Assembly: GCA_964490075.1 (NCBI GenBank)
Contig: CAZBBK010000013.1
Location: 62,001-98,391 of the forward strand
Direction: 5' to 3'
Origin: an uncultured Gemmatimonadota bacterium
Lineage (GTDB): Bacteria; GCA-2686955
DNA length: 36,391 bases
Of this stretch, positions 9,141 to 34,828 are shown one piece after another (the first letter of the stretch is position 1; each line of letters starts with the position of its first letter). The notes under the pieces are model-generated. The model searched no databases. It had not been told where the DNA came from and worked only from the letters and a program-made list of their open reading frames with translations. The position numbers and the translations under genes are program-made.

Positions 9141-9390
9141 TCAGACGAAGCTCGTGTCTTTGAAGTAGTCGCTCAAGAACACGATCTTGCCGTCGCGCAG
9201 CCCGATCACCGTGACGCCCTCGTTCCGAAGCGCGCAGGCTCGAGCGCCGTCGATCGGCACTTCGTGGAGATGGAAGTCGAGGCGGCGGTACTTGCGGAAG
9301 AGCACACGCAGGAAGGCCAGCACGCGGCGCGACCCGACCAGCGGCGCCATTCCCGGAAAGCGCAGCTCGATCTCCTCGACGAGGGCGAAC
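9141..9390 (-). pseudogene. Remnant of a SnoaL/NTF2-like gene
   Basis: The C-terminal part reads like NTF2/SnoaL (IELRFPG..LVGSRRVLAFLRVLFRKY...GVTVIGLRDGKIVFLSDYFKDTSFV). There is no credible start or N-terminal helix, and an internal segment appears to be missing. Confidence 0.5.
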
Positions 9391-9574
9391 GCGCCGCCGC
9401 CCGGGATTTGAGCGCTAAAGGAATCTGTCCGGTGCTCCAGTCCTACCGCAGCCTCGGCCCCGCCGATCTCTCGAAGGTCCCTTATTGGCTCTGGAGCTCT
9501 GCTCGCGAGGCGGGGAAACGACGCCGTTTCGACGACGAGGGCTCGACATCGGCGGTCTGGAAGCTCCTCGCGCG

Positions 9575-10630
9575 CTAGAACCGCAAATCGAGCTGCACCA
9601 AAAGCTCGTTGTTGTCGACCTCGGTCCCCTCTTCGTCGTAGAGGTTGTAGTTGGCTCGGATCGCGACGTGGTCGTTCAGGTGACAATTTGCCCCGAGGCT
9701 AGTCAGCAGCTCCTGGTCATCGGCGATTTCGTCGTTCGGATCGTACTGCTCGTAGCGGGCCAGCGCGGTGATGTGGGGACTGATCTGGTAGGAGGCGAGC
9801 GCGTGCCAGCTCCAGGTCAGCAGGTCGGAACCGTCTCCTTCCCGAGACTGCGCGATGTACTCCGACTGCAGTGTGATTTTTTCGGCCGCGTAGGCGAGCA
9901 GCCCGGAGATACGCTCTCGCTTCTTGCCGAGGCCCTCCTCTTCGAGCTGGTCGCCGCCCCAATAGGCGCCGCCGAGACGGAGGGGACTCAGAGGCGATTC
10001 CATGCCCTTGAAGGGCTGCAAGACTGCGCGAGCCACCAGGTCCTTGGCATCGTTGACATCGTCTATGTTGACTCCCGATCCATTGAAGACACCGAGCGAG
10101 AGCCGACACTTGCCCTGAAGGAGCTCACTGCCGAGCACGAGGCCGATGTCTCGCGGAGAGATCCTCGGGTTGTCGGCGGAGCTGCCGGCATGGGTCTCGT
10201 AGATCCGCGGGCCGCGGATCAGCGGTTGCGACGGCGCCGGATTCGCGAATGACAGTCCCGCCTCCGAGAAGGGCACCTTGAACTGGCCGACGCGCACGCT
10301 GAAGCGCTCATCCGGAGCGTAGGTCAGAAAGGCATCCCAGAGCGTGTTCTTGCGAATGCTGTACAGGACTTTGTAGCTGGTATTGGAAGCCAAACGACCA
10401 GCGAAGTAGAGCTTCACTTCCGCCACATCGAAATCGTCGGGGCTGGTCGATTCCGGATCGTCGGCGTCCTCCGTGGCGTTGTAGCGAATAAACGCCACGC
10501 CCTTGATAGAAGCATCCAGACTTCCGCTGGCGATCTGAATCCCGGTGTCGCTCTCGGCCGCCGCGGTCGAGAGCGGAGCGCCGGCAAGGGCGCCCGCCAC
10601 CAAAGCTACCATCAGCTGTATCGATCTCAT
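9575..10630 (-). CDS. Outer-membrane porin (phosphate-selective porin O/P-like beta-barrel)
   Basis: Signal peptide, VRVGQFKVPFSE, RDIGLVL and GVFNGSG motifs, C-terminal Phe (QLDLRF). ATGA overlap with the upstream fusion gene. Confidence 0.85.
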   Translation of the reverse strand: MRSIQLMVALVAGALAGAPLSTAAAESDTGIQIASGSLDASIKGVAFIRYNATEDADDPESTSPDDFDVAEVKLYFAGRLASNTSYKVLYSIRKNTLWDAFLTYAPDERFSVRVGQFKVPFSEAGLSFANPAPSQPLIRGPRIYETHAGSSADNPRISPRDIGLVLGSELLQGKCRLSLGVFNGSGVNIDDVNDAKDLVARAVLQPFKGMESPLSPLRLGGAYWGGDQLEEEGLGKKRERISGLLAYAAEKITLQSEYIAQSREGDGSDLLTWSWHALASYQISPHITALARYEQYDPNDEIADDQELLTSLGANCHLNDHVAIRANYNLYDEEGTEVDNNELLVQLDLRF

Positions 10631-12372
10631 CGCGCATTTCCTTTCATCACTACCGACAGCTCCTCCATCAGACGCAACATCTCCTCGGCCGGCACGAAGT
10701 CGACCACGCGTAGCTCACGGTGCTCTCTGCCCTGATCGTCGAGCATGATCAGAGTCGGAACCCCTTTCACCTCGTAATGTCTCAGCAGACGATCGTGCAG
10801 CGGGTTGTCGCCGCCGGTCACGTCCACCTTGATCATCACCAGGTCCTTGGCGGCTTGCACCACCCGCGAATCGTGAAACGTCTCGGCTTCCAGCTTACGG
10901 CATGGCGTGCACCACCCGGCCGAAAAGTCGATGATGACCGCTTTGCCCTCTCGGCTCGCGTGAGCGAGGAGCTCATCGGAGTAGTGTTGCCAGCCGACCC
11001 CGGGCCCGAGCAACGCCCAGGCGGTGATCAGGTAGGTTCCGAGCACCACGCCCGACAATCCCATGGCGCGTTTGATCCAGGCGAAGCTGCGGAAGCTCGC
11101 GACGATCGGATCGAGCCAGCCTACCGCAACCCCCGCGACCAGAGCAACCGTCGCGATCGTCAGCAGGCCGAGGGGCTCGGGCAGAATCGGGCGCAGAAAA
11201 TAGGCCGCCATCCCGATCAGGATCCAACCCATCAGCCGGCGCACCCAGAGCATCCACTCGCCGGAGCGCGGCAGCCGATCGATGCGACCGGAGAAGACCG
11301 CCAGCGCGAAGAGGGGCAGCCCCAGTCCGAGGCTGAGGGTGAAGAAGATCAGGAATCCGTACCAGGCGCTGCCGCTCTCGGCCACCAGCGTGAGCAGGCC
11401 GAGCACGAAGGGCCCGATGCAGGGCGCGGCCACCACGCCCATCGCCAGTCCCATGAAGAGAGTGCCGAAGTAGCCGCCGTGGGAGCGCGCCGCCACCTGG
11501 GTCAGCCCGCTGGGCATGCGCATCTCCCACAATCCGAACATGCTGGTTGCCAGCAGCAGCAGAATTCCGGCCACCCCCACCAGCACCAACGGATTCTGCA
11601 GCAGCGCCCCCATCATGCCGCCGGTGAGTCCCGCCACCACGCCGAGCGCGGAGTTGGTGATCACCAGTCCGGCCAGGTAGCAGAGACCGTGGACCACCAC
11701 CGCACCCTGGGATCTGCCCGAGCGGCCACCGAAGTAGGTCACGGTGATCGGAATCAGAGGGTAGACGCAGGGGGTGAGGTTGAGGGCCAGTCCTCCCACG
11801 AACACTCCGGCGAGCATGAGCACCAGGGCCCAGCCGAACACCGGCACGGCCGGCACCTCGGTCTCCTCGATCGCCGGCGAATCGACGCTCGCCACCGGCA
11901 GACCGTGCTCCCGCCAGTCCGGGAACCCCTCCGGGTAGCGATAGACTTTCTCGTATCCCAGTGAGACGGCCACACGGGCCGCCGAGTCGCTGCGGACTCA
12001 GGTGAAGCCCGCTCAGTAGAATGCGATCAAGGCGTCCGAGTGCGGCTCCAGCAGCTTGTCGATTTTGCCGCGGGCGCGCCACCGGGCCCACCAGGTCGGC
12101 TCCATCGAGAAGTGCAGCGAGCCGGGGATGTGGCCGGTGCGATGCTCCCAGGCCTGGCGGGTGTCGACCAGCGCCACGCTCTTGGGATCGTTCTCGATCG
12201 CGCGCACCAGCTCGTCGGCCTCGATCAGCCCGTAGCCGCCTTTGCGTGCCTCTTTCTCCAGCTGCGCCTGTTGCTCGGGCGTGGCATCGGCGATCGCGAT
12301 CCCGGGCCACGCCAGCAGAGCTGCCAGGAGCACCAGACCAAGCGGTACGCGTCTATCGATGGAGTCCTTCAC
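10627..12372 (-). CDS. Predicted double-selenocysteine protein: signal peptide + rhodanese (UxxxxU) + DsbD/CcdA transmembrane domain + thioredoxin-like domain, 581 aa
   Basis: ORFs 12013..12372 and 10627..11973 share one frame and are separated only by TGA at 12013-12015 and TGA at 11998-12000. Read-through gives LVDTRQAWEHRTGHIPGS...IAFY-U-AGFT-U-VRSDSAARVAVSLGYEKVYRYPEGFPDW, a complete rhodanese domain. It continues into TPCVYP and APCIGP (DsbD beta) and WCTPC (Trx). GGAGG precedes the GTG start. Confidence 0.88.
11965..11999 (-). promoter_or_regulatory. Two tandem bacterial SECIS-like hairpins
   Basis: mRNA GAGUC-CGCAGC-GACUC has its loop starting 18 nt after UGA1. GGCGGCC-CGUGU-GGCCGUC has its loop starting 21 nt after UGA2. 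Both have G at loop position 2. Confidence 0.6.
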
Positions 12373-13394
12373 GATGATCCTCCGGCCGCCGAAGAAGCCG
12401 ACACTTGCGCGTCATCGGAGCGCAGGCGTTGAACCAGCGGTGTGACCCAACTGCCGGCCATCGCCGCCGGCACGAAGAGCAGCGCGCCCGGGGCCAGCAG
12501 GGGCGTGGCGCTCAGCCCCAGCCCGACCGTGCAGCCGGCCGCCAGGGCACCGCCGAGTCCCAGCCCGATGCCGCCGGCGAAGGCGGTCGCGAGCTTGCGC
12601 GGCGACGCCTTCGACCACTTGAAGCGGCCCTCGACCCGGGCGGCCGCGTGGGCCCCCAGGGTAATCGCCACCACCAGCACCGCGGCTGCGTCCAGGCGCC
12701 CGGGTCCGGCGCCCAGCAGCGCCTCGAACCAGCTGATGTTGCCGGGGATGATCGCCAGTCCATGGCCGCGTCCATCGACCGCCGCCAGCGCCCAGGCGCC
12801 GATGCCGACCGCTCCGATCACCACACCGGTGCGACGCCAGTCCCAGGCCCCGCGGGCCGCGGTCGATGGCTTCAGGCGACTCGCGACCACCAGCAGCAAT
12901 AAGGCCAGCGGCAGGGCAAGGGTCCACAGCGGTAGACCCGCCAGGCGCGGCGGATCGATCGGAGCCGGCACCGGCGCACCGCCGCCCCCGCCCGCCAGGT
13001 GGACGATCAGTCCGATCGACGCCGTGAAACCGGCGACCGCGGCCGTGCAGGCGACACTTCCTTCGCCGACATGTTGCCACACTCCCGCTCCGCAGCCACC
13101 GGCGGGCGCCATGGCGAAGCCGAAGATCAGGCCGCCCAGCAGCACCCTTCCGACATCGAATCCGATCTCGGGCAGCGCCAGCCATCCGGCCGCCGCCAGC
13201 AGCGGCAGCACCGCCATCTGCACCGCGACCGCCAGCCACAAGGTGTGGAACTTGCCGAAGCGCCTCCTGACCAGGAGGTCCCGAAAACCGGAGTTCAGTC
13301 AGAAGCGGCCGCGGCTCGCCGCGTAGCCGTAGGCGAAGCCGAGCGCCGCCCCTGAGAGCAGGGTGAGGCTGGTGTGGAGCATGGCTGGGTCCAT
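12369..13394 (-). CDS. YeeE/YedE-family thiosulfate/sulfur(selenium) transporter, predicted selenoprotein (U32), 341 aa
   Basis: ATG 13394, 3 nt after the ArsR stop, is in frame with ORF 12369..13241 through one TGA at 13299-13301. The translation is GAALGFAYGYAASRGRF-U-LNSGFRD, matching the family RxRFC motif. GGLIFGFAMAPAGGC and GLGGALAAGC follow. Confidence 0.88.
13263..13278 (-). promoter_or_regulatory. SECIS-like hairpin of the YeeE/YedE gene
   Basis: mRNA CCUCCU-GGUC-AGGAGG forms a perfect 6-bp stem with a G-initiated 4-nt loop starting 26 nt after the UGA. A lower stem GAACU/AGUUC is also possible. Confidence 0.7.
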
Positions 13395-13397
13395 CCG

Positions 13398-13715
13398 CTA
13401 CGGCTTCTTGGTGACGCAGCAGGTCGGGGCGGGCGGCTCGGCCGCCGCCTCGTCGTCGAGCAGGGCGACGAGTTGCGCGATGCGCGGGTCGCAGAGGTAG
13501 TAGCAGCGCAGCCGGCCGTGCACGTAGAAGTCCACGACCCCGCGCTTGCGCAGGACCGCAAGATGCTGCGAGACATTCGGTTGAGGAATCCCGAGGTTGG
13601 GCTCGAGGTCGGAGACGCAGAGCGGATCTCCCTCCTCCGCCAGGCGTTTGATGATCCGAATCCGCGTGGGGTGGGCGATCGTTCGCAGCAGCAGGGCCTT
13701 GGCTTCGACGTCCAT
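13398..13715 (-). CDS. ArsR/SmtB-family transcriptional repressor with five Cys
   Basis: IAHPTRIRII, LCVSDL and QPNVSQHLAVLRKRGVV motifs, plus RCYYLC and a C-terminal TCC. Confidence 0.93.
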   Translation of the reverse strand: MDVEAKALLLRTIAHPTRIRIIKRLAEEGDPLCVSDLEPNLGIPQPNVSQHLAVLRKRGVVDFYVHGRLRCYYLCDPRIAQLVALLDDEAAAEPPAPTCCVTKKP

Positions 13716-13721
13716 GCGGAT

Positions 13722-13750
13722 ACGATAGGGAAGCCATCATATGCCGTCAA
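13722..13750 (-). promoter_or_regulatory. Sigma70-type promoter of the arsR-yeeE-rhodanese/dsbD-porin operon (probably leaderless)
   Basis: Minus strand TTGACG (13750-13745), 17 nt, TATCGT (13727-13722), 6 nt, then ATG. No Shine-Dalgarno sequence. The region is an AT-rich island. Confidence 0.7.
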
Positions 13751-13797
13751 GGATATATATTAGATCGGCCAGGGTTTCTCTGGCGGCGCCCTTCTGG

Positions 13798-16700
13798 TCA
13801 GCTCGCGATCCGCCGCCGCACGCCGCGTCCGTGGAAACGGCCGACGTGCAGCACGCGCGCCACGTCGTCGACCAGGCTATAGAGCGAGGGGATGACCAGC
13901 AGGGTCAGGAAGGTGGCGACGGTCAGGCCCCAGACGATGGTGCTGGCCAGCGGACCCCAGACCGGGGAGTGGCCGCCGATGCCGAGCATCATCGGCAGCA
14001 GGCCGAAGACGGTGGTGAGGGTGGTCAGGCAGATCGGCCGCAGGCGGGTGCGGCCGGCATCGAGCACGGCGTCGCGCAGACTCAGGCCCCGCTCGCGCCC
14101 CATGTTGATGAACTCGATCAGGACCAGCGAGTCGTTGACGACCACCCCGGCCAGCGCCACGAAGCCGTAGAGAGTGGTGATGGTGAGAGTGTCGCCGCTC
14201 AAGGTGAGACTGATGGCGGCGCCGGCCAAACCGATCGGGATGGTGTAGAGGATGATCAGGGGCTGCACGAAGGAACGGAACTGCGCGCCGAGGATCATGT
14301 AGATCAGCAGCAGGCCGAGCAGGCCCAGGCGGCCGATGCCGCTCAGCGCCTTTTCGAACTCCTTCATCTCGCCGCCGAAGTCGAGACGGTATCCCGGGAA
14401 GCCGGGGGCGAGCTGCGCGAATCGTTGCTCCACCCAGCGTGCCACGTCGCCGCCCGACATGCCGCCTCCCTTCAGGTTGCCGCTGATGGTCACGGCGCGA
14501 TCACCGTCGAAGCGCGGGACCGCGCTCAGGCCTTCGGCGACTTGGACGGATGCGACCTCGCTGAGCGGCACGCTGCCGCCGCTTCGGGTGGGGACTCGCA
14601 GCGACAGAATATCGGCGATGTCGCGCCGGTAGCGCTCGTCGAGGCGCACCACGACGTCGATCTTTTCGTCGCCGTCCAGGTAGCTGGTGGCCACCTCGCC
14701 GTCGAGGGCGGTGCGCACGTGGGTCGCCAGGGCGGCGTTGTCGAGGGCCACCATGCCCGCCACATCGGGGCGCAGGCGCAGCTCGAGCACCTGCTTGCCG
14801 GGGCGCAGATTGTGGTCGACGTCGACCACTCCGGGCAGGGCGCCGAGCTCGTCGCGCAACAGGTTGCCGAGCAGCTCCAGATCGTCGAGGTAGGGACCCT
14901 TGATCTTGAACTCGATCGCCGCGCCGGCCGGCGGGCCGTCGGTCTTCTCCCAGATCTTGACCGTCTCGAGCCCGGTCAGCGAGGCGACGCGCGAGCGGAT
15001 CTGGTCGGTGATCTGGCGCATCGAGCGCGTCCGGTCGTCGTTCGGCACCAGGTCGACGTAGACCTCGCCCACCGCCGTGTTCCAGATCCAGTCGGTGTCG
15101 GTACGGAGCAATCCGGCGGTGGTGATCACCGATCCGCGCTCGGCGGGGTCGATGGTGTCGAGCACGATCTCCTCGAAGCGGTGCATCTGGGCGTCCATCG
15201 CCTCGAGGGTGGTCCCCTCGGGAGCCCACACCTGCACCCAGAACTGGCCCGATTCCTCGCCGGCGAAGAGGTCGGCGTCGGCCAGCTTCCAGGCGATCAC
15301 CCCCACCGAGAGGATCGGCAGCACGGTGGCCAGGGCACCGACCGCGTAGCGATGGTCGAAGCAGAGCGCCAGGAGGTGCGAGTAGCGGGGGCGGACGCGG
15401 TCCAGCAGCCGGCTGCCGAAAGGCGGGCGGTCGTCACCGGCGACGATGCGACCCCAGTCGGCGACGTGCGCCGGCAGCACGATGAGCGCCTCGAAGAGCG
15501 AGACCGCCAGGGCCACCGAGACGACGATCGGCACCACCTTCAGGAACTCGCCCATGATGCCGGGCAGCAGCATCAGGGGCAGGAAGCCGGCGATGGTGGT
15601 CAGGGAGGAGGTGAGCACCGGCAGCGCCACCTCCGACATGCCCCGGATCACCGCGCGATGCGGAGAGCTGCCCTGCTGGATGTGGCGGAAGACGTTCTCG
15701 ATGATGACGATGGCGTCGTCGACGATCATCCCCAACACCAGCACCAGGCCGAAGAGGGAGTTGCCGTTGAGGGTCTCGCCGATCAGGTCGAGGAAGAGGA
15801 AGGTGCCGGTGAAGCTGACGGCGATGCCGAGCGCGGCGAAGAGGGCGTTGCGCGCCTCCAGGAAGAGCAGCAGGGTGAGGATGACCAGGATCAGGCCGAA
15901 GCCGGCGTTGCGGTAGAGGGTGCGCAGGATGTCGCGGATTCCGACCGTCGAGTCGCCGCTCAGGCGGACTTCGACCCCGGTGGGCATGCGCTCTTCGAAA
16001 CCTTCGGCGGCCTCGCGCACGCGGTCCAGCACGTCGAGGGCGTTGGCGGCGGCGCGGCGGGTGACGAAGAGGGCGAAGGCGGGTTGCCCGTCGAGGCGCG
16101 AGTAGGTCAGGGCGTCCTCGAAGCCGTCGCGCACCGCGGCCACGTCGCGGATGCGCAGATGGCCGCCGCCAGGGGAGGGGCGCAGGATGACCGATTCCAG
16201 CTCGGCGGCGCTGTCGACCTCGCCCTTGGTCTTGACCATGAACTCGACCTCGCCGACCGGATAGTTGCCGGCCGGCAGGTCGAGGTTGTGGGCGCGCAGC
16301 GCATCGACCACGGCAGAGAGCGGGAGGCCGGTGGCGTCCAAGGCGGCGGCGTCTACCTCGACGAAGACCTGGCGATCGCGGGTGCCGATCAGCGAGGCGT
16401 CGGAGATGCCTTCGACATCGAGGATCTCCTCGCGCAGGTCGTCGACCCAGCGCTTGAGCTGGGCCTCGGGGTAGTCGCCCGAGAGGGTGAGGTGGACCAG
16501 GGGCTCGAAGGTGGAGGTATCGAGATCGAAGTAGTCGATCTCCTCGACCCCCTCCGGAAGCTGGTCGCGGATCGCGTCGATTTCGCGCTGCACGTCCTGG
16601 AAGCGGCGCCGGTACTCGTCGCGCGGCATGGTCTCGAAGCGCACCGAGATCTGGCCCGAATTCTCGGTCGCCAGCGAGGTGATGGTGCTGATCCCTTCGA

Positions 16701-16920
16701 TCCCCTCGATCGCCTCTTCGATCTCACGGATCACCTTGCGCTCGATCTCTTCGGGGGTGGCCCCCGGGTAGATCGCAAACACGTAGACCCAGTTGAAGGT
16801 GATGTTGGGATAGGCCTCGCGCGGCATGCGGGCGAAGGCCAACAGGCCCATGACCAGCACGATCAGCGCCAGCATGTTGGTGAGAACGGTGTTCTCGATG
16901 ATGCGCCGGAACAGGCCCAT
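13798..16920 (-). CDS. RND efflux permease (AcrB/AcrD/AcrF-like), 1040 aa
   Basis: MPREAYPNI, GMIVDDAIVIIEN, GVVVNDSLVL and RLRPICLTTLTT motifs. The start is ATG 16920 (MGLFRRIIE); the 18225 start is a frame extension. Confidence 0.95.
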   Translation of the reverse strand: MGLFRRIIENTVLTNMLALIVLVMGLLAFARMPREAYPNITFNWVYVFAIYPGATPEEIERKVIREIEEAIEGIEGISTITSLATENSGQISVRFETMPRDEYRRRFQDVQREIDAIRDQLPEGVEEIDYFDLDTSTFEPLVHLTLSGDYPEAQLKRWVDDLREEILDVEGISDASLIGTRDRQVFVEVDAAALDATGLPLSAVVDALRAHNLDLPAGNYPVGEVEFMVKTKGEVDSAAELESVILRPSPGGGHLRIRDVAAVRDGFEDALTYSRLDGQPAFALFVTRRAAANALDVLDRVREAAEGFEERMPTGVEVRLSGDSTVGIRDILRTLYRNAGFGLILVILTLLLFLEARNALFAALGIAVSFTGTFLFLDLIGETLNGNSLFGLVLVLGMIVDDAIVIIENVFRHIQQGSSPHRAVIRGMSEVALPVLTSSLTTIAGFLPLMLLPGIMGEFLKVVPIVVSVALAVSLFEALIVLPAHVADWGRIVAGDDRPPFGSRLLDRVRPRYSHLLALCFDHRYAVGALATVLPILSVGVIAWKLADADLFAGEESGQFWVQVWAPEGTTLEAMDAQMHRFEEIVLDTIDPAERGSVITTAGLLRTDTDWIWNTAVGEVYVDLVPNDDRTRSMRQITDQIRSRVASLTGLETVKIWEKTDGPPAGAAIEFKIKGPYLDDLELLGNLLRDELGALPGVVDVDHNLRPGKQVLELRLRPDVAGMVALDNAALATHVRTALDGEVATSYLDGDEKIDVVVRLDERYRRDIADILSLRVPTRSGGSVPLSEVASVQVAEGLSAVPRFDGDRAVTISGNLKGGGMSGGDVARWVEQRFAQLAPGFPGYRLDFGGEMKEFEKALSGIGRLGLLGLLLIYMILGAQFRSFVQPLIILYTIPIGLAGAAISLTLSGDTLTITTLYGFVALAGVVVNDSLVLIEFINMGRERGLSLRDAVLDAGRTRLRPICLTTLTTVFGLLPMMLGIGGHSPVWGPLASTIVWGLTVATFLTLLVIPSLYSLVDDVARVLHVGRFHGRGVRRRIAS

Positions 16921-16922
16921 GC

Positions 16923-18044
16923 TCAGCGCTCCGCCCGGATCTCGACCGCCTCGCCGTCGACCAGGCGCTGGTGGCCGACCACGATCAGACGATCGCCGGG
17001 GACCAGGCCCTCGACGATGCGCACCCGCTCGTCGACACGCTCGCCGACGCGCAGGGCGCGCTGCTGGGCCAGGCCGTTCTGCTCGACGAAGCCGAGCGCG
17101 GCGCCGCGCCGCACCACCACCGCCGACTGCGGGATCAGAATGGCGTCGGCGAGCTCTTCGCGCACCAGCTCGACGCGCACCGCGCTGCCGATCAGGGCTC
17201 CAGTCGCGGCGCTCAGCTCGACCTCGACCGGGTAGGTGCGGGTGCCGGGATCGGGAGCGACGGCGACCGAGCGCACCCGGGCGGGCCAGGCGCGGCTCGG
17301 ATCGTCGATCGGCTCGACGCGCGCGCTGTCGCCGGGCGCGACGGCGATCACCTCGCCGGCCGGCAGGCCGACGGTGATCCGCGGTGGGCCGCTGGAGACC
17401 AGCCGCGCCACCGGCTGTCCGGGGGCGATGGTGGCGCCGGGATCGGCGGCGAGGGCGGCGAGGACGCCCGGCCAGGGCGCCCGCACCACGGTCTCGCGAC
17501 GGGCGCGCAGCGCCGCGCGCAGGCTCGCCTCGGCATCGCGCCGGGAGGCGGCGGCGCTGCGCCTGGAGAGCTCGGCCTGGTCGCGCTGGGAGTCGGTCAG
17601 GTCGCCGGCGGCGTGCAGCTCGCGCACCCGCAGCCATTCGCGCTCGGCGTGCTCGGCGGCGGCCCGGGCGGCGTCGAGGCCGGCCTCGGCGCGCGTCACG
17701 CCGATCTCGGCCGGCTCGGGGTCGAAGCGCAGGATCGGATCCCCGGTCGCCAGGATGTCGCCGGTGTCGTGGAGCTGCTCGATCACCCGACCGCCGGTCT
17801 CCGAGGCGAGCCAGACGTCGTGCTCGGCGGCCAGAGCGCCGGTGGCGCGGATCAGCAGGGCGGCGGAGCCGGGTTGGACCCGCTCGACTTCGACGGCGCT
17901 GAGGGGGGTGGTCGTGGCGGCGGGCGGGTCGGCGTCGCCCTCGGCGCGGGTGTCGTGGGCGCAGCCGAGGAGCGAAAGGGCGGCGAGCAGGGCGACCGGA
18001 AGCAGAACGCGAGCGCCGGCGGTCGTCGTGGGATCGGGGATCAT
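16923..18044 (-). CDS. RND periplasmic adaptor (membrane fusion protein), lipoprotein
   Basis: Lipobox LLGC, alpha-hairpin, VRAPWPG, DPGTRTYPVEV and GLVPGDRLIVVG. Confidence 0.92.
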   Translation of the reverse strand: MIPDPTTTAGARVLLPVALLAALSLLGCAHDTRAEGDADPPAATTTPLSAVEVERVQPGSAALLIRATGALAAEHDVWLASETGGRVIEQLHDTGDILATGDPILRFDPEPAEIGVTRAEAGLDAARAAAEHAEREWLRVRELHAAGDLTDSQRDQAELSRRSAAASRRDAEASLRAALRARRETVVRAPWPGVLAALAADPGATIAPGQPVARLVSSGPPRITVGLPAGEVIAVAPGDSARVEPIDDPSRAWPARVRSVAVAPDPGTRTYPVEVELSAATGALIGSAVRVELVREELADAILIPQSAVVVRRGAALGFVEQNGLAQQRALRVGERVDERVRIVEGLVPGDRLIVVGHQRLVDGEAVEIRAER

Positions 18045-19507
18045 GGGTGGTCCTCTGCGGGTCCCGGCGGGACGCCGCTCGCCAGCTCCGAGAAACCGAG
18101 GAGGAAGCCGAGCGCGGCGGCCTCCAGGTAGTAGCCGGTGCGGTTCGAGATCGCTCCGAGCTCGGCCTCCAGGCAGGCCAGGCGGGCATCCTCCAGCTCC
18201 AGACGAGAGACGGCGCCCTGGACACGGCCGCGCTCGGCGGCGGCCAGCCCGCGGCGGGCGGCGGCGGCGGCCTTGGTGGCGTGCCCGCGGCGGCGGACGG
18301 CGGTGCGCAGTCGGGCGAGGTGCGTCACGAGCCGCTCGCGCTGGGCGCGACGCGCGTCATCGAGCCGGTGCCCTTCGGCGGCCTCACGGGCTCGGGCCTC
18401 GGCGCGGTCGAAGTAGCCGGTGGCGAAGGGAAGCAGCGGGAGCGAGACCACCAGCGACGCGCTCCATTCGGAGTAGTCGTCGAGGGCGATGGTCTCGTTG
18501 GCGCGCCAGCCGTAGCTGGCCCCGACAGCGACCGAGGGGAGCAGGGGGGCGCCGGCGGCGCGCGCCGCGGCGGCGGCGATGGCGCGCGCGGCCTCGGCGG
18601 CCCGCACCTCCGGGGCGGTGGCGCGTAGGCTCCGGGCCCAGGAGTCGACGACGCGCCCGGTGGTGTCGGCGAGGACGGTCTCGATGGGGCGCAGCTCGGG
18701 CAGGTCGCGTGCCTCGTCGAGGACCTCGATCGACTCACCGGGCGCCAGCGCCCTTCCCAGCAGACGCTCCAGTGCGGCGCGGGCCTCGACCTCGGCCGCC
18801 CGAGCCTCGGCCAGGTCGGCACGCGCGGCCGCGGCGGCGACCTCCCAGCGCAGCAGGTCGAGCTCGGTCCCGCTGCCCACCTCGAGACGGGTTGCCGCGC
18901 TGCGCCGGTAGTCGTCGACGCGGTCGACGTTGGCGCGCAGCACGGCGATCGTCTCGAGCGCCCGCCGCAGCGAGAGGAAGGCGCTTCGAGTCTCGAGCTC
19001 CGCGCGGCGGTCTTCGATCCGCTCCATCTGGTTCGCCAGGTCGCGCGCGCCCCGCGCCATCCCCAGCGCCCCCAGGCGGCTGCCGCCGGTGAAGAGCGCC
19101 CAGCTCAGCTCCAGCTCGCTGCGGTGGCTCTCGGCGAACACCCGCAGGTCGTCGAAGTCGCCGCCGGCCGACCGCGATTCGGGGGGCGGACCGAGCGAGT
19201 CGCCCGGCACCTGGGGCGCCGGGAAGAAGTCGATCCAGGAGTTGGCTCGCTCGACCGTCTCGGCGTCGAGGCGAGTGATCCGATGACGCGCGTCGAGCGA
19301 GGGCAGCCAGAGCGACCAGGCGCCCTGCTCGGCCGCGCGGGCGGCCTGCTCTTCGGCGCGGGCGGCGGCCAGCGCCGGATCGGAGCGTCGCGCTTCGGCG
19401 ATCGCGTCGGCGAGGGTCAACGCAAGCGCTTCCGGTGCCGCGCAGGTCGCCAGAACGAGGAGCGTCCGGGCGCTGCGTCCCATCCACCAGCCTCCCACGC
19501 CGATCAT
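18041..19507 (-). CDS. TolC-family outer membrane efflux protein
   Basis: LTLADAIAEA, LPSL, LFTGG and Ala/Arg-rich coiled coils. ATGA overlap with the MFP. Alternative start at 19483. Confidence 0.88.
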   Translation of the reverse strand: MIGVGGWWMGRSARTLLVLATCAAPEALALTLADAIAEARRSDPALAAARAEEQAARAAEQGAWSLWLPSLDARHRITRLDAETVERANSWIDFFPAPQVPGDSLGPPPESRSAGGDFDDLRVFAESHRSELELSWALFTGGSRLGALGMARGARDLANQMERIEDRRAELETRSAFLSLRRALETIAVLRANVDRVDDYRRSAATRLEVGSGTELDLLRWEVAAAAARADLAEARAAEVEARAALERLLGRALAPGESIEVLDEARDLPELRPIETVLADTTGRVVDSWARSLRATAPEVRAAEAARAIAAAAARAAGAPLLPSVAVGASYGWRANETIALDDYSEWSASLVVSLPLLPFATGYFDRAEARAREAAEGHRLDDARRAQRERLVTHLARLRTAVRRRGHATKAAAAARRGLAAAERGRVQGAVSRLELEDARLACLEAELGAISNRTGYYLEAAALGFLLGFSELASGVPPGPAEDHP

Positions 19508-19533
19508 CGTCTAGGTGCTCCTTGCCGGGGCGC

Positions 19534-24588: not shown

Positions 24589-26612
24589 TCAGTCGCTGGA
24601 AATCACCAGGTTGTCGAACCCGACGTGCACCGGGCGGTCCGCGAAGGCGAACTCCACGATGCCGTAGAGCTCCTCCCAGGCCGGCACCCGCCCCTGGATG
24701 ATCGGCGCGCCGTCCAGGTCGACCTGGACCTCGTTTTCGCGCAGCTGAAACCTCACGTGGTGCCATTCGCCGAGGGTGAAGGGCTGCGCGTGCTCACCCA
24801 CCAGGCGATCCTCCATGTCGGGCACGTGCACTTTGAGCGACACTCCGTCGGGCGTGAAGTGCATCACGAATCCGGTCTTGGCCCAGGGCATCCAGGCCGC
24901 CCGAACGTCGACCGAACCGGCCCAGAGATTCAGATCGAGCTCGACCGCCTGCTTGCCCCGCGGACTGCCGATCACCGCACAGGTGCCGGTGATCCAGTTG
25001 TCGTCCATCACCTGGGTGGTGTCGACGGCGTAGCCGTAGAGCATGTGGTTGAGCGGATCGAGAGGATCGGTACCGCGCTTCCAGTTCCAGATCGCCGGGT
25101 CGGTGTAGGCGATGAAGAGCCGGCTTCCGGAAACCTCGCGGTCCTCGAAGTCGTCTTGGTAGTAGGTGGTGTCCGGCTCCCAGGGGATGTCGATGTCGCG
25201 CAGGCGACGCGCTTCGTTGAGCATGGCGGTCGACTGCTGGAGAGTCCTCGAGCTGTCGTCCGCGGCGAGATTGAAGAGCTCCTCCGGGTCCTGGACCAGG
25301 TCGTAGAGCTCCAGCTTGGAGCTGAGACGCAAACCTCTCCCGGCGTGGATCAGCTTCTCTCCATGACGCACGGCGGCACGGAAGTTGGCGGTAGCTCCGA
25401 GAGCCGCGGGTTGGCCGTAGCCGCCGCTGAACAGGCTTAGCCCCTGGGCCTGCGCCGGCACCGGAAGGCTGAGGAAATCCAGAGTCGAGGGCATGAGGTC
25501 GACGTGGGAGATGGTGAAGTCGACCCAGATGCCATGAAAGCCGGGGTGTTGGCTCAGCCAGGCTTCCGGCAGCCAGATCACCATCGGTACATGGTTGTTT
25601 CCTTCGTAAAAGGTGTTGTGACAGAAGTAGCGTCCGTGCTCGCCCGCCAGCAGCTCGCCGTGGTCGGCGGTGAGGATCACCAGCGTGGAGTCGAGGATGC
25701 CGCGGCTCTCGAGCCCCTGGAAGATGCGCGAGAGCTCGAAGTCGGACTGCGCGATCATGGCGTCGTACTGGGCCACGTAGTAGTCCATGTCGAGAATGCC
25801 GTCGCGCGCCACGCCCGCGGTGATGCCGCCCACGCAGCTCTGAGTGGTGAACCCGGGAGCGTCGCCGAGCCCCTGGTAGAACTCGTCATCGACGAAGAGC
25901 GAGTCGAACGCGGCGATCGCGGTGTAGGGGCTGTGGGCGGCGTAGTACTGCACGTGCGCGAAGAAGGGCTGGCGCGTGGTGTCGGCATCGAGGAACTCGA
26001 AGAAGCTGTTGGTCACCAGCGAATCCGGGCGGCTGAAGACTCGCGACCAATCAACCCCTTGTCCAGGTTGCGATCCAGCCCCAGCACCACCGGATTGCTG
26101 GACAGCATGCAGGTGCGGTAGCTCTGTGCCTTCAACAGCTCCGCGGTGGTCTGCCAATGATCATCGAGCCGAATCGCCTGGGTGAACATCTTGTGGGTGT
26201 GCACGGTGAGCGAGGTCACGATCGATGCGACGCCGGGAACCGTCCAATCGCCGCTGGCCGAGCAATGGCCGAAGACGATGGCCTGGTCGGCGATCGAATC
26301 GACGAAGGGGGTGGTCGCGCGCGGGTAGCCGTAGAGGCTCAGATGATCCGCCCGAGTCGTGTCCCAGACGATCTGCAGCACGTTGTAGCGCTGCATCTCC
26401 TGGGTCCGAACGATTCCGGCGCCGAGCGCCTCCCACTGCTCTTGGGAGAGGACCTGGAGCCCCGGAAGGGGTGCCACCGCGGCCGAGGGCGCGGCTCTTT
26501 CGCCTTCGGCGGGAACGCGCTGCATCATGGGCTGCTCGGCATTGGCCGGTGCGGCCAGGGCGAGGGTGGTCAGCAAGGCCAGGGCAGAGACCCGCTCTCT
26601 CTTCTCGATCAT
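24589..26612 (-). pseudogene. Sulfatase-like (alkaline phosphatase superfamily) exported hydrolase split by a 1-nt frameshift (pseudogene or sequence error)
   Basis: The N-terminal half (signal peptide, NVLQIVWDTTRADHLSLYGY, WTVPGVAS) and the C-terminal half (PFFAHVQYYAAHSPY, TADHGE, HVPMVI, ELYDL..DPEE) are in different frames. They join at GGG TT^G ATT GG (26052-26054), where one added base gives NLDKGFDWSR and a 674-aa ORF. Confidence 0.85.
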
Positions 26613-26730
26613 CGGACGACTCTCCGGCGGCGTCTGTATCGCCGCGCCACGTGGAGCTGGGAAGGGAAGCACACAAGAACAACCTAACACGGTGCGCGCC
26701 GACTCCAAACGCGCCCTTCCGCCTTCGCTG

Positions 26731-28173
26731 CTAGCCCGCCCGCTCCGCCAGCAGAGCGTCGCCGATCGCCCTGTCGATCCGGGTCATGCGGTAGATCGCC
26801 GCGCGCATCTGTTCGGCGGGACGATCGCCCTGCGCGGCTTGTTCCACGAACTCCGGATTGTAGAAGTCCCAGACGATGGCGCCGCCCAGATCGACCTCGA
26901 ATCCGCGCCCGCGGTTGGTCTCGGTGATCAGCACGTTGCCGTTGGGCAGCTTCTGGCTGCCGCCGCGGGTCATGGTCAGGAACGACTCGGGCGGATCGGC
27001 CTGGTAGCTCCAGACGATCTCCCCTGTGCTCGGATCGACCTCGATCACGCGCGAGTAGTGACGGCGGGTGCCGTTGTCGAAGATCAGCAGATTGCCGTTC
27101 GGCAGCATGGTGGGATGATGCGGTCCCTCGAGCTCGCCCGGTCCCCAATGCCAGACCACCGCCCCGCTCTCGGCGCTCAGCACCGCGACCACGTCGATCT
27201 TGCGGAAGCAGACGATCAGGTCTTTCTCTTGCCAGAGCCCGGCGGGATGAGCGTCCAGGCAGCCGACCGTGTTGCCGTGCAGGGGATCGGCGGGACTGCC
27301 GACCAGCATCGCGATCTTGATCTCCTCGGGCTCGTCGGAGCGGTCGGCGAACATCTTTTTGTAGGTGCCGACATAGGACCTGATCTGCCGGCGGCTCGCC
27401 CCTTCGCTCTTCAGCCGGCTCTCGATATCTCTGGCGTGGAAGGGCCAGGTGTACTGCTCGATCTGGGCGTCGATCGCCGAGCGCAGCTCCGGAAGCGCGC
27501 GCAAGGCATGGACCAGTGAGATTCGCTCCTGCACCGCGCCGGCCGGAGAAATTCGCAGCACCTCGTTGTCGAGCAAGGGAACCTCGCCACCTTGGTAGCG
27601 CACTCGGGTCATGCGGTTGACGAGGGCATAGATCTCTCCGTCGCCGCCGACGGTCACGTCGTGGTGGGCGGCGATGTCGAGCTTCCACAGCGTTTCGGAC
27701 TGCCAGCTCAGCTTCAGCAGCATGTGGTTGGCGCCGACCACCAGCAGCTCACCCGAGGGGTACATGACGACGTGGTTCCAGCCGCCGTACATCTCCGGCG
27801 CGAGCTCCCCCAGGCGCTCGTCGACCGCGGCTTTGGCTGCTCCCGACTCCTCCGACGACCACGAGTGCAGCACTTCTCCGCCCATGTCCAGCAGGTGGGC
27901 CTCGGTTCGCGGGCGCGAGTTGTAGAGCGTGTAGCCGTCTTGGTAGCGCTGCGGGTCGGAGTCGACCACGCCGGACCGGGCTCGTCGCGACGATTCGACC
28001 GGAACCCAGTTCACGTAGCCCAGGCTTTTTAGCCGCGCCAGATCCGCCTCGCTGACTTCCTCCTCGCGGGCCCCATCCTCTTCGGGTTGGGCGCACCCGA
28101 TCGGCGCCGCGCCGAGGGCCAGCAAGAGCACCAGAGTGGGGATGGACGCAGTCTCGAATCGTGGGATCACCAT
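26731..28173 (-). CDS. Arylsulfotransferase (ASST)-family beta-propeller protein, possible lipoprotein
   Basis: AHHD, LHGN, PHHPTMLPNGNLLIFDNG, SRVIEVDP and GSQKLPNGNVLITE. Hydrophobic N-terminus ending PIGC. Start at ATG 28173. Confidence 0.88.
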   Translation of the reverse strand: MVIPRFETASIPTLVLLLALGAAPIGCAQPEEDGAREEEVSEADLARLKSLGYVNWVPVESSRRARSGVVDSDPQRYQDGYTLYNSRPRTEAHLLDMGGEVLHSWSSEESGAAKAAVDERLGELAPEMYGGWNHVVMYPSGELLVVGANHMLLKLSWQSETLWKLDIAAHHDVTVGGDGEIYALVNRMTRVRYQGGEVPLLDNEVLRISPAGAVQERISLVHALRALPELRSAIDAQIEQYTWPFHARDIESRLKSEGASRRQIRSYVGTYKKMFADRSDEPEEIKIAMLVGSPADPLHGNTVGCLDAHPAGLWQEKDLIVCFRKIDVVAVLSAESGAVVWHWGPGELEGPHHPTMLPNGNLLIFDNGTRRHYSRVIEVDPSTGEIVWSYQADPPESFLTMTRGGSQKLPNGNVLITETNRGRGFEVDLGGAIVWDFYNPEFVEQAAQGDRPAEQMRAAIYRMTRIDRAIGDALLAERAG

Positions 28174-32244: not shown

Positions 32245-32640
32245 ATGAACTGGACCCCACTCATCCAGCAGCTGCGCGACGCGCTGCCGACGCTGTTGGC
32301 GATCTACGGCTTCGGCAGCCGCGTCGGCTCCGATGCCGGACCGGAGAGCGATCTGGACATGGCGGTTCTGGTGGAGGGCAAGGTCGATCCGATCGTGCTC
32401 TGGGAGCTCGCCGAAGGACTGGCGGAGCGCGTTGCGTGCACGGTGGATCTGCTGGACCTGAGGGCTGCCACGACCGTCATGCAGTACCAGGTCATCACCA
32501 CCGGCGAACGGCTCTGGACCCGGGACCACCGGGCGGCGCTCTACGAGAGCTTCATCCTGAGCGAGAAGACCGCCCTGGACGAGGTCCGCGCGCCGCTCCT
32601 CTCCCGCATCCAACGAGAGGGAACCATCCATGATCGATGA
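32245..32640 (+). CDS. mntA: MNT minimal nucleotidyltransferase antitoxin
   Basis: YGFGSRV...ESDLDMAV (GS-x10-DxD) and VDLLDL. Overlaps the HEPN gene. Confidence 0.9.
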   Translation: MNWTPLIQQLRDALPTLLAIYGFGSRVGSDAGPESDLDMAVLVEGKVDPIVLWELAEGLAERVACTVDLLDLRAATTVMQYQVITTGERLWTRDHRAALYESFILSEKTALDEVRAPLLSRIQREGTIHDR

Positions 32641-33061
32641 CGTGCTCATCAACAAGGCGGCGATCATCGAGCGCTGTGTGGCCCGCGCCAAGGAGGAGTA
32701 CGACAAGGATCGAAGCACCTTCGCCACCGACTTCACGCGCCAGGATGCCGCCGTTCTGAACATCCAGCGGGCCTGCGAGGCTGCCCTGGACATGGGACAG
32801 CATCTCATCCGTCGCCAGCGCCTCGGTGTTCCCCAGGGGGCGAGGGAGGTCTTCGATCTGCTGGCGCGGGGCGGCTGGATCACTCCGGACTCCGCCGCGA
32901 AGCTCAAGCCCATGGTGGGGTTCCGCAACATCGCCGTGCACGACTACCAGTCCCTGCAGCTGCCCATCACGGTCGCCATCATCACCAAGCACCTGGACGA
33001 TCTATTGGGCTACGCGCAGGTAATCTTGAAGCGTGATGGTCGCGAGTCGGGCGAGGACTGA
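32630..33061 (+). CDS. hepT: HEPN (DUF86) RNase toxin
   Basis: LNIQRACEAALD and the Rx4HxY motif GFRNIAVHDY. Confidence 0.92.
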   Translation: MIDDVLINKAAIIERCVARAKEEYDKDRSTFATDFTRQDAAVLNIQRACEAALDMGQHLIRRQRLGVPQGAREVFDLLARGGWITPDSAAKLKPMVGFRNIAVHDYQSLQLPITVAIITKHLDDLLGYAQVILKRDGRESGED

Positions 33062-33304
33062 AGGGGAGCGCGCCAAGGCGTTGCTGTCTACGAGAGTCGC
33101 CACCTCGGCGCCCTGGCGCGCACCTTTATCGCCCTTGCTGGTCGCCTCGCGGGCGGATCCGCGCCGCCATCGGCGCGTCCAAGTCGCTTTGAGGGCGGAC
33201 TATACGCCTTTTTCGATGGCTGGCCGCCGGTTCCGGCACGGGAGCTGCGAACCGATGATCGTCCCCCGTGTGTCGCATTGGTTGGGTTCCTTCAGGAGAG
33301 TCCT

Positions 33305-34828
33305 TTGAGATCGATCGTACCCGCACTCGCCACTCTGAGTCTGGTCGCCTCGGCGTCGGCCAAGGTCATCCACGTTCCCGACGCCTGCTCCACGTTGGCG
33401 GATGCCGTCAAAGCGGCGGTCGATGGTGACGAGATCGTGCTCGCGCCGATGAAGCACCTGGCCGCGGCGGTCGAAATCGGCAAGGAGATCACGATCCGCA
33501 GCTTCGATCCGACCGACCGGGAGATCGTCGCGCAGACCATCGTGATGCCGCCGAGCGACATCGCCAAGTACGATGTCTACGCATTCAGGTTCGAAGAGGT
33601 CGGGTCCGGGGCTCTTCTGGACGGGCTGACGATCGCCCATTACGGGTCGAAGGAAAAGCCCTCCTGGGCCTATTCCGCCGTTTCCATATTCAGAGCCTCC
33701 CCACGCATCCGGAACTGCGTGATTTCGGACAACTACCTCGTCACGGCCATCGGAGGTCTGGAGATCATTTTGGGCGAACCGGTCATCGAGAACTGCCAGA
33801 TCAGATACAACCACGGTCCCGAAGCCGGGGGCGTGTACATCGGCCCCTTCAGCCGGCCGCGCTTTCTCAACACTCAGATCGACAACAACGACGGTAGCGG
33901 CGTCTACATTCGGGGCCGAGATTCACGGCCGGTCTTCACCGATTGCGCGATCACCCACAATCAAGACCTCGGCGGCGCCGGGGGAGGAGTGTTCGTGTAC
34001 TCGGAGTCGAGCGCGAGCTTCGTGGACTGTTTCATCTACGGCAATCGAGCTGAGTATGGCGGTGGAATCGCCTGCGGGCCAAGGATGTTCGACTACCCCG
34101 GCGGCAGCGTCGAGCTGACCAACTGCCGGGTGACCTTCAACTACGCCGATTCCTACGGCGCCGGCGCGCACGTCTTCCGCGGCGGCTCGCTGAGCGCGGT
34201 GCACACGGAATTCGCATTCAATCGCACGGAGAAAGAAGGCGGCGCTCTCTGCGCGGATCCCGCCAGCCACACCGATCTCACCGCCTGTCTCTTCGACGGC
34301 AACGAGGCCAGCGTCGGTGGCGCTCTGAGCGCGAGAGGCAGCGCGCCGGTCATCGACAACTGTGTCTTCAACGCCAATCAAGCCGTCGCCGAGGGAGGTG
34401 CCATCTACTCGAATGCCGGCGACGTTGGCGTCACCAACTGCACCTTCGTCGCCAACACCGCGTTCAGCGGTGGCGCCCTGAGCAACACGGCGGGCGGCTC
34501 GACGCGGATCCTCAACTCCATCCTTCATCGCAACACTTCGATTCCGATCCTCTCGGCTCCCGACAAGATCACCGTCGCTTTCTCCAACGTAGACGGAGGA
34601 TGGCCCGGAGAGGGCAACACCAGCAACAATCCTCGGCTCTTCACCTTCGACAAGAGCACGCCCCATTTCCTGCACAAGTCGTCGCTCTGCATCGACGCCG
34701 GCGATCCGGCGATCGACGACACCGCGGACTGGGACAGCGTCGCTCCCTGGTACGGAGGGGCCAACGGCCCGACCAGCGACATGGGCGCCTACGGCGGAGC
34801 GTATGGAGACTGGTGGTTCGGCTGGTAG
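33305..34828 (+). CDS. Secreted right-handed parallel beta-helix repeat protein (paralog of 6611-7981)
   Basis: Signal peptide, KVIHVP..STLADAVKAA.DGD, N.A..GG repeats and SLCIDAGDP...DMGAYGG. TTG 33305 follows AGGAG; the frame is open from 33278. Confidence 0.85.
   Translation: MRSIVPALATLSLVASASAKVIHVPDACSTLADAVKAAVDGDEIVLAPMKHLAAAVEIGKEITIRSFDPTDREIVAQTIVMPPSDIAKYDVYAFRFEEVGSGALLDGLTIAHYGSKEKPSWAYSAVSIFRASPRIRNCVISDNYLVTAIGGLEIILGEPVIENCQIRYNHGPEAGGVYIGPFSRPRFLNTQIDNNDGSGVYIRGRDSRPVFTDCAITHNQDLGGAGGGVFVYSESSASFVDCFIYGNRAEYGGGIACGPRMFDYPGGSVELTNCRVTFNYADSYGAGAHVFRGGSLSAVHTEFAFNRTEKEGGALCADPASHTDLTACLFDGNEASVGGALSARGSAPVIDNCVFNANQAVAEGGAIYSNAGDVGVTNCTFVANTAFSGGALSNTAGGSTRILNSILHRNTSIPILSAPDKITVAFSNVDGGWPGEGNTSNNPRLFTFDKSTPHFLHKSSLCIDAGDPAIDDTADWDSVAPWYGGANGPTSDMGAYGGAYGDWWFGW

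Follow-up and report, generated by a model that had tools for sequence, protein, structure and literature searches.

Can a membrane transporter for sulfur compounds use selenocysteine (Sec) in its substrate path? This question is raised by a gene, called yeeE(U) below, on the minus strand of a 36,391-nucleotide stretch of DNA from an uncultured Gemmatimonadota bacterium (assembly GCA_964490075.1, contig CAZBBK010000013.1, positions 62,001 to 98,391). This whole stretch is referred to here as the window. At the codon of the first of three cysteines conserved in the YeeE family, the gene carries TGA, for which a sequence-only reading of the window had proposed translation as Sec. Our comparisons of related sequences indicate that yeeE(U) is very probably a genuine selenoprotein in which UGA32 is decoded as Sec.

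Reading frame and family membership

On the minus strand, the TAG stop codon of an arsR gene (13400..13398) is followed by CGG and then by an ATG (13394..13392), from which a frame runs to the TGA stop of yeeE(U) at 12371..12369. The sole in-frame TGA upstream of this stop is 13301..13299, codon 32. With TGA written as U, the translation reads AASRGRF-U-LNSGFRDLLVRRRF, which agrees with the junction SRGRF-U-LNSGFRD given by the sequence-only reading for TGA 13299-13301. Under genetic code table 11 the open reading frame (ORF) covers 12369..13241 only, with a TTG start, 290 aa and the N-terminus MWLAVAV. It begins inside helix 3 and is devoid of helix 1 and of the first Cys loop.

In a Pfam search, PF04143 (Sulf_transp) matched the translation with 165.8 bits (cut-off 27), aligning residues 28-317 with profile positions 1-310 of 310, and this full-length coverage is obtained only when the TGA is read through. 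The earlier proposals that the standard ORF is missing the first transmembrane helix, that read-through restores it, and that a YeeE/YedE membrane protein carries Sec at its first (RFC) cysteine are thereby borne out, the TGA being aligned to the family Cys. The other two family cysteines, Cys101 and Cys288, are ordinary TGC codons, as had been said. The placement of the start 3 nt after the arsR stop stands in part. There is an ATG at 13394, but the start Met of close relatives (MSHTSL/MSLTSL) aligns with the second ATG of the window, 13382..13380 (M-L-HTSL), so that translation may begin at 13394 or, four codons later, at 13382.

Conservation and probable decoding of the TGA codon

A genome survey gave 80 loci, of which 78 cover the N-terminus and two are without that part. 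TGA occupies the same codon in 8 of the 78, and the remaining 70 have TGC or TGT. Five of six metagenome loci also have this TGA, and the sixth (29% identity) has Cys. Two genomes of the same family (G002 and G003) carry it in proteins of 79% and 91% (partial) identity. In all, TGA stands at the codon 32 position in 16 loci and TGC or TGT in 71 relatives. Once L017 with L035, and the identical L029 and L036, are collapsed, 14 distinct sequences have the TGA. It is retained at this single codon down to 35-38% protein identity and across three tree positions, and no TGA stands at the codon of the second or the third Cys in any of the surveyed yeeE(U)-type genome loci.

The column itself is a cysteine column. 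In a 44-sequence family alignment Cys is nearly invariant there (at least 90%), and full-length homologues read RGAF-C-LNSGFR, KGQF-C-MNSGF or RGQL-C-FHSAIR. Among database proteins, the 10 most similar (67-100% identity) are gene calls of 277-290 aa, every one truncated at the N-terminus; those that follow in rank (32-41% identity) have their full length, and a Cys in the U32 column. Truncation of this kind is expected where a gene caller fails to recognise a Sec codon. Two further 50%-cluster representatives start MNAGFRNLLVRR and MNSGFRNLLVRR, exactly one residue past the expected U. Every automatic gene call in this clade is short by about 50 residues, and the clade is systematically mis-annotated.

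The uniform truncation of these calls could also be read at face value: TGA32 would be a true stop, the gene a decaying or N-truncated yeeE with a 290-aa product devoid of helix 1, and the upstream 31 codons non-coding. The distribution of the assembly over 136 contigs and the splitting of another window gene, for a sulfatase, over two frames would fit such a view. The codons upstream of the TGA, however, evolve as coding sequence. Over 25 codons, third-position and synonymous differences dominate in most of 10 pairs (synonymous versus non-synonymous codon differences: 9 versus 4 for window/L017, 12 versus 6 for L046/L054), with slightly more non-synonymous than synonymous differences in two of the 10. 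A check for gene decay, suggested with the original reading, gave no other sign of it: there is one in-frame stop only, the Pfam match spans the whole profile, and the changes in front of the TGA are mostly synonymous.

The cellular background also argues for decoding. The genome to which the window belongs (5.7 Mb in 136 contigs, 95% complete) contains a tRNA-Sec with anticodon tca. It also has the genes selB (345.6 bits), selA (505.9 bits) and selD (317.9 bits), each above its curated cut-off and on a contig other than that of the window. Genomes with the TGA allele and no Sec machinery were looked for, as they would have spoken against Sec. All eight further TGA-allele genomes searched have selA above its cut-off, versus 4 of 16 sampled Cys-allele genomes. 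The selD gene of the window's genome (C65:32509-33429) itself carries one in-frame TGA, so SelD is probably also a selenoprotein in this organism.

The occurrence of TGA at one codon in 14 distinct sequences at three tree positions, its confinement to selA-positive genomes, the conserved hairpin with compensatory changes described below, and the adjacent gene tsoB, which requires two more TGA read-throughs and passes a curated selenoprotein model, all stand against a true stop, which we consider very improbable. A genome-wide reassignment of TGA to Trp or Gly, or a sequencing error, is hardly conceivable. TGA terminates 21 of the 29 listed window frames with high GC content at third codon positions, including yeeE(U), tsoB and an RND gene; codon 32 aligns with Cys, neither Trp nor Gly; and the same base is found in independent assemblies.

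A hairpin downstream of UGA32

Bacterial selenocysteine insertion sequences (SECIS) have their apical loop roughly 16-37 nt after the UGA, with a G early in the loop, and the loop of the E. coli fdhF SECIS is GGUC. A SECIS-like hairpin follows UGA32 (Table 1). Its counterparts at the TGA loci lie about 20 nt downstream of the UGA and have stems of 6-8 bp and the loop GGUC, GGGC or GGGA in 16 of 16 cases. A G-first loop on a stem of 6 bp or more occurs at all 16 TGA loci and at 3 of the 71 Cys loci. The more distant Sec clade has UCUCCU-GGGA-AGGAGA, UCUUCU-GGGC-AGAAGA and UCUCCU-GGGC-AGGAGA, and locus L066 has an 8-bp hairpin, CGCUUCGU-GGUC-ACGAAGCG, one codon nearer to the UGA.

In an alignment of 14 rows (10 distinct), pairing is preserved in 60 of 60 cells, with C-G to U-A double changes in two of the six pairs, and sliding the partner brings pairing to 45-72%. 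The helix 13263..13278 was the only consensus structure obtained with RNAalifold. The 3' arm is made of two rare AGG Arg codons, AGR representing 15 of 495 Arg codons (3%) in 12 confident window genes. The organism's SelA, SelB, SelD and tRNA-Sec would thus decode UGA32 under the direction of this hairpin.

Several results weaken the case for the hairpin. Its covariation score was matched by 1 of 500 shuffles, a control that overstates the significance because the sequences are related. Judging from the codons involved, its conservation is partly protein-level, as it overlaps the conserved codons D/N-L-L-V/G-R-R. Folded on its own, the window sequence of the hairpin region reaches no better energy than shuffles do (z 0.11), and no significant z-score was obtained after any of the three UGAs of yeeE(U) and tsoB; the argument for a SECIS consequently rests on sequence comparison. 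A scan of 10500..13800 against Rfam detected no SECIS family at E <= 10. The matches that it did return, to miRNA, sRNA and ribozyme families only, were at chance level and were rejected.

Recurrent exchange of Cys and Sec

A quick maximum-likelihood tree of 82 rows was computed, with L033, L034, L035, L037 and L074 omitted as partial, distant or duplicate. All Sec rows fall within one starred subfamily of 35 rows, which holds 23 Cys and 12 Sec rows and stands apart from a Cys clade of 47 rows that are mostly Nitrospirota. Three Sec groups can be recognized. The clade of the window has 6 rows (support 100), and a second clade, of 5 rows (support 99), bears the labels KSB1, 'Cytophagia' or unnamed metagenome-assembled genome. 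The third place is held by L066 on its own, nested in a Cys clade of Myxococcota/Pseudomonadota (support 97). The minimum number of Cys/Sec state changes is three, and the starred branches force at least two. Since L066 forms a long branch and the root is arbitrary, we limit the claim to at least two switches at the codon 32 position, in either direction, as indicated by this tree. Because the swap was made at least twice at one position, the natural Cys and Sec forms represent a ready-made pair for testing the transport mechanism, that is, whether the relay is chemical or purely hydrogen-bonded.

Predicted fold and position of Sec32

Compared by phmmer with 6LEO, the solved YeeE of Spirochaeta thermophila (StYeeE), the yeeE(U) product gave E 2e-23 and the correspondences U32=C22, C101=C91 and C288=C293 (offset: query residue 14 = chain residue 4). 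The AlphaFold model, built from the 44-sequence alignment, has a mean predicted local distance difference test score (pLDDT) of 92.1 and a predicted template modelling score (pTM) of 0.89. It superimposes on 6LEO with TM-scores of 0.82/0.86 and a root-mean-square deviation of 2.5 over 334 columns at 27% identity, and its structure matches at E <= 0.001 are YeeE entries only. The model thus shows a full-length inner-membrane protein with the hourglass fold of YeeE/TsuA. In it, U32, C101 and C288 lie at the N-terminal ends of short helices (H33-43, H102-110 and H289-299), a placement like that of loops LA, LB and LD of StYeeE, the first having Sec instead of Cys. Sec32 is the innermost of the three residues, which are aligned across the thin centre of the hourglass.

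What is reported of the equivalent cysteine makes this position of special interest. In StYeeE, Cys22 is located towards the cytoplasm, with about 7 Å between it and the central Cys91, and a C22-C91 disulfide is described in about half of the purified protein (PMC7449682). According to PMC11073785, C22 is at the YeeE-YeeD interface, beside the catalytic Cys17 of YeeD.

NCBIfam has no selenoprotein-specific model for Sec forms of YeeE, either of the published type or of the window type, and its silence is therefore uninformative on novelty. The YedE/FdhT models (NF033796, TIGR04112) gave 56.4 bits, below the cut-off of 350.

Operon structure and neighbouring genes

The overlap of the GTG start of tsoB with the stop of yeeE(U) (GTGA), together with the ATGA overlap at the next junction, shows that arsR, yeeE(U), tsoB and a porin gene (Table 1) form a tightly, translationally coupled operon. 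It contains three Sec codons in two adjacent genes, in Gemmatimonadota-labelled lineages.

Table 1. Features of the yeeE(U) locus (positions in the window)
Feature	Position	Strand	Description
yeeE(U)	12369..13394	minus	341 codons including one in-frame UGA; Sulf_transp/YeeE family
UGA codon 32 of yeeE(U)	13299..13301	minus	very probably read as Sec; aligns with StYeeE Cys22
Cys101 codon of yeeE(U)	13092..13094	minus	TGC; equivalent to StYeeE Cys91, the central cysteine
Cys288 codon of yeeE(U)	12531..12533	minus	TGC; equivalent to StYeeE Cys293, the periplasm-side cysteine
SECIS-like hairpin	13263..13278	minus	CCUCCU-GGUC-AGGAGG; starts 20 nt after the UGA; codons L-L-V-R-R
arsR	13398..13715	minus	105-aa ArsR/SmtB-family repressor; PF01022 53.8 bits; stop 3 nt before the first yeeE(U) ATG
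Promoter-like site with ATATATAT box	13722..13765	minus	TTGACG, 17 nt spacer, TATCGT; upstream of arsR
tsoB	10627..12372	minus	581 residues; signal peptide, rhodanese, DsbD membrane domain, thioredoxin
Porin_O_P gene	9575..10630	minus	outer-membrane porin of the phosphate-selective O/P type; PF07396 43.2 bits (cut-off 20.9); ATG overlaps tsoB stop (ATGA)

The promoter-like match before arsR is the only one in 9300..14000 (4.7 kb). In five of five aligned arsR upstream regions (window, L025, L029, L030 and L033) the pattern ATATATAT..TTGAC.G.AT is invariant, and the ATATATAT box (13751-13765, minus strand) abuts the -35-like TTGAC. The site is likely to be the promoter and operator of the operon, with the box as a candidate operator for the ArsR-family repressor. 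The ArsR protein scores 75.6 bits with NF033788 (cut-off 55) and is below the cut-offs of the BigR model (52.7, cut-off 155) and of the TsoR model (36.9, cut-off 115).

Just upstream of arsR, at 13798-19510 on the minus strand, are genes for an RND efflux permease (600.9 bits with RND_permease_2, under the cut-off) and for a TolC-like outer-membrane protein; in L046, too, an RND pump adjoins yeeE(U). The window's RND genes are parted from arsR by the sole promoter-like site of the region and therefore probably constitute a separate unit.

The tsoB product matches NF045694 (seleno_TsoB) with 860.7 bits, above the cut-off of 805, and the Pfam families Rhodanese, DsbD_TM and Thioredoxin_7. Its two in-frame UGAs (12015..12013 and 12000..11998), five codons apart, fall in the active-site loop of the rhodanese, FY-U-AGFT-U-VRS, and both TGAs are kept in two related genomes. 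The signal-like N-terminal sequence, judged by eye, suggests that TsoB is periplasmic. The second UGA of tsoB sits in the loop of a hairpin that follows the first one, and a hairpin with a CGUGU loop follows the second.

At other Sec loci a recurrent group of genes surrounds yeeE(U). It is directly preceded by genes for an ArsR-type helix-turn-helix (HTH) domain fused to rhodanese in L043 (2174-2902) and in L066 (1925-2992). It is followed by Porin_O_P and then DsrE genes in L043 and L054 and by DsrE in L056; the order in L030 is arsR, DsrE, yeeE(U), a fatty-acid hydroxylase gene and DsrE. P0017 (482 aa, 47% identity, Cys at the U32 position), which of the 50%-identity cluster representatives gives the best match of full length, is a fusion of Sulf_transp with a C-terminal DsrE domain, and other family members are fused to TusA.

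Proposed function

In the accepted model of YeeE/TsuA, thiosulfate is passed along the three cysteines by S-H-S hydrogen bonds. Selenols are largely deprotonated at physiological pH, and consequently a natural Sec at the last relay position fits the hydrogen-bond model poorly. Its presence at the relay exit points to nucleophilic or redox chemistry at the place where the carrier protein docks.

We propose that the operon would carry an anion of sulfur (or selenium) across both membranes, for example thiosulfate or a species with sulfane sulfur. Entry of the substrate would be by way of the outer-membrane anion-type porin; the Sec-rhodanese of TsoB, kept reduced by its own DsbD and thioredoxin modules, would process or present it in the periplasm; and YeeE(U) would conduct it across the inner membrane. 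At the cytoplasmic exit the Sec32 selenolate, presumably the most nucleophilic residue at the hand-off point, would serve as nucleophile or hand-off site. It would capture or release the substrate by means of a transient Se-S bond, formed either to the substrate itself or to Cys101, and, unlike the Cys proposed for TsuA, would not be a hydrogen-bond donor. The acceptor would be of the DsrE/TusA type, and in other lineages a DsrE-like protein that adjoins this YeeE subfamily or is fused to it. By analogy with the solved YeeE, where this position forms a disulfide and contacts the Cys of the carrier, transient covalent or redox chemistry at Sec32 may be expected. The ArsR-family repressor probably senses the cargo or its product, as SoxR does beside SoxT (PMC11582611). 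We infer from these elements an import of chalcogen anions with Sec as the hand-off nucleophile. The complete account, comprising a full-length Sec-containing YeeE, hairpin-directed decoding, a coupled operon, a two-membrane sulfur/selenium anion route and a hand-off at Sec32, appears likely.

A bolder extension would make YeeE(U) a membrane-embedded sulfurtransferase, not a passive channel, and uptake a group translocation. The selenolate would attack the sulfane sulfur of thiosulfate or polysulfide, and the transient Se-S adduct would be resolved by Cys101 or passed on to a DsrE-type carrier. If true, this would single out the position as the point at which the whole YeeE family is limited by chemistry and not by hydrogen bonding, since Cys and Sec have been exchanged at least twice at this one position. 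The idea is tentative, and we hold it to be doubtful.

The nature and direction of transport allow two other explanations of the same selenoprotein. The cargo might be selenium, the operon being an uptake or trafficking route akin to YedE/FdhT that handles selenide or a selenosulfate-type species. YedE-type members of the Pfam family have been linked to selenium transport (PMC5322559, PMC11582611), the YedE/FdhT model gives a weak match (56.4 bits), and three Sec codons occur in two adjacent genes. That score, however, falls far short of the cut-off (350) and is exceeded by the TsuA scores given below; no selD, selA, selB or yedF is present in the window; and the recurrent neighbours, DsrE, rhodanese and the anion porin, are of sulfur-relay types. 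A selenium cargo is accordingly quite improbable.

Alternatively, the protein might function in export or sensing, that is, in the detoxification or signalling of reactive sulfane sulfur or of a metalloid under an ArsR metalloregulator. An ArsR-family gene lies immediately upstream in the same orientation, the ArsR-HTH and rhodanese fusions precede yeeE(U) in L043 and L066, the RND pump and TolC-like genes lie just upstream in the window with an RND pump also beside L046, and SoxT1B is reported to signal to the ArsR-type repressor SoxR (PMC11582611). We nevertheless find this explanation unlikely. The RND genes probably belong to a separate unit beyond the sole promoter-like site, and the outer-membrane anion porin and the C-terminal carrier fusions in the subfamily fit import better. 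The effector of ArsR, for its part, is not assignable from its relatives in the PDB, as the ArsR-family entry 8QKF, Rv0081, BigR, CadC and SqrR tie at E 1e-10 to 1e-7.

This last point tells equally against the import route with Sec32 as hand-off site, and so do the following. The C22A variant of StYeeE still complemented growth, and the Cys22 position is therefore not universally critical, although C25 was essential in E. coli (PMC7449682). The TsuA equivalog models gave 110.9 bits against a cut-off of 400 and 89.4 against 645 (NF052577, NF041049). The rhodanese of TsoB is predicted to be periplasmic, across the membrane from Sec32. TsoB was found above cut-off in only 1 of 24 other genomes searched (1 of the 8 TGA genomes), a close relative of the window's, and its link with yeeE(U) is restricted to the window's own family. 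Finally, no TusA/YeeD (PF01206) or DsrE gene is found on the window's contig; matches occur on other contigs of the genome, those to PF01206 on C61 and C1 only.

Other observations in the window and genome

A second PF04143 match in the window's genome, on contig C85, had been flagged for one TGA, which proved to be the stop of an upstream nrfD-like gene. The region C85:1607-5998 encodes a molybdopterin oxidoreductase, a 4Fe-4S protein and an NrfD-like protein (named by eye), a set like that of polysulfide/thiosulfate reductases. Next come two genes for half-size YeeE proteins, both with ordinary Cys; in the second, a rhodanese-like C-terminus is fused to the YeeE part.

The sulfatase-family gene of the window (24592-26783, minus strand) consists of two overlapping frames, 26016..26783 for the N-terminal part and 24592..26160 for the rest; this split may reflect a frameshift, a pseudogene or an error of assembly. 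On the plus strand, 32176-33061 encodes a type VII toxin-antitoxin pair, the MntA antitoxin and the HepT RNase toxin, both above NCBIfam cut-offs. A fourth read-through suspected at 33061 (frames 32561..33061 and 33062..34828) was rejected, as the two frames are the HepT toxin gene and then a separate gene.

Comparison with known systems

The operon resembles the 'three selenoprotein operon' (Tso) of Haft and Tolstoy 2025 in that TsoB is above cut-off and has the published U-x4-U motif (PMC13188914). Unlike in Tso, the ArsR protein is under the TsoR cut-off and neither TsoA nor TsoC was found in the window's genome: no match was obtained in this 95%-complete sequence, with control genomes equally silent, so that the sensitivity of the search is unproven. 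Another parallel is SoxT1A/SoxT1B-SoxR of Hyphomicrobium denitrificans, where the gene for a full-length YeeE-like protein with three conserved Cys positions, which serves to import sulfur or to signal, adjoins that for a repressor of the ArsR family (PMC11582611). In contrast to SoxT, yeeE(U) has Sec, and no sox or shdr genes are present among the window ORFs scanned.

With TsuA/YeeE of Spirochaeta thermophila and E. coli (6LEO, 8K1R), the window's protein shares the fold, the three loop positions lined across the membrane and, in its subfamily, carrier proteins that dock or fuse on the cytoplasmic side. It differs by the Sec that replaces the cytoplasm-side Cys and by its neighbours, TsoB and a porin, or DsrE in other lineages, with no adjacent YeeD/TusA gene.

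Selenoproteins are not new to this family. The YeeE/YedE thiosulfate transporters are catalogued as a selenoprotein family with the motif GUxSG and the example WP_012471001.1, and several other Sec-containing transporter components are named in the same source (PMC13188914). The text of a 2022 review (PMC9312934) includes the same selenoprotein family in a passage from which the motif is absent. The original view that Sec in the substrate path of a transporter is unusual consequently keeps its force for the position but loses it for the principle, catalogued both for this family and for other integral transporters (PMC13188914). YeeE is not mentioned in the main texts of Zhang and Gladyshev 2008, Peng 2016, deep-Sep and BSepDB, and full-text literature searches with YeeE-type names and selenocysteine or selenoprotein gave only the two reviews as relevant. 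Gemmatimonadota are absent from the main text of BSepDB, the one selenoprotein text searched for this phylum.

Like the catalogued GUxSG proteins, yeeE(U) belongs to PF04143 and has one Sec in place of a pathway Cys. For comparison, PF04143 was searched in 301 genomes of one phylum, that of a Desulfobulbaceae-labelled genome. A match was present in 169 of them, and 14 of the 18 listed rows flagged for TGA were examined, with 240 further matches lying beyond those listed. Of the 14 rows examined, nine are half-size (about 170 aa) PmpA-like proteins with G-U-P-S-G (L117, L120-L126 and L128), two have AGG-U-NIGG, two are not Sec cases, and one, L115 (G357:C31:13095-14582), is a full-length YeeE with Cys first and Sec second (AKG-U-ATS). 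None of these 12 Sec cases from the single phylum has Sec at the first Cys. The GUxSG motif would thus correspond to the loops of the second or third Cys, as far as this one-phylum sample can tell. The central-Cys Sec of L115 and the half-size G-U-P-S-G proteins indicate that Sec entered the YeeE family at several different loops, and the window form, given that no examined Sec case has Sec at the first Cys, represents a different one. Within the scope of these searches, a Sec that replaces the cytoplasmic exit Cys in a YeeE of full length thus seems to be a new position, in a family whose selenoproteins are already catalogued. The window's protein belongs to a family of selenoproteins overlooked by annotation pipelines.

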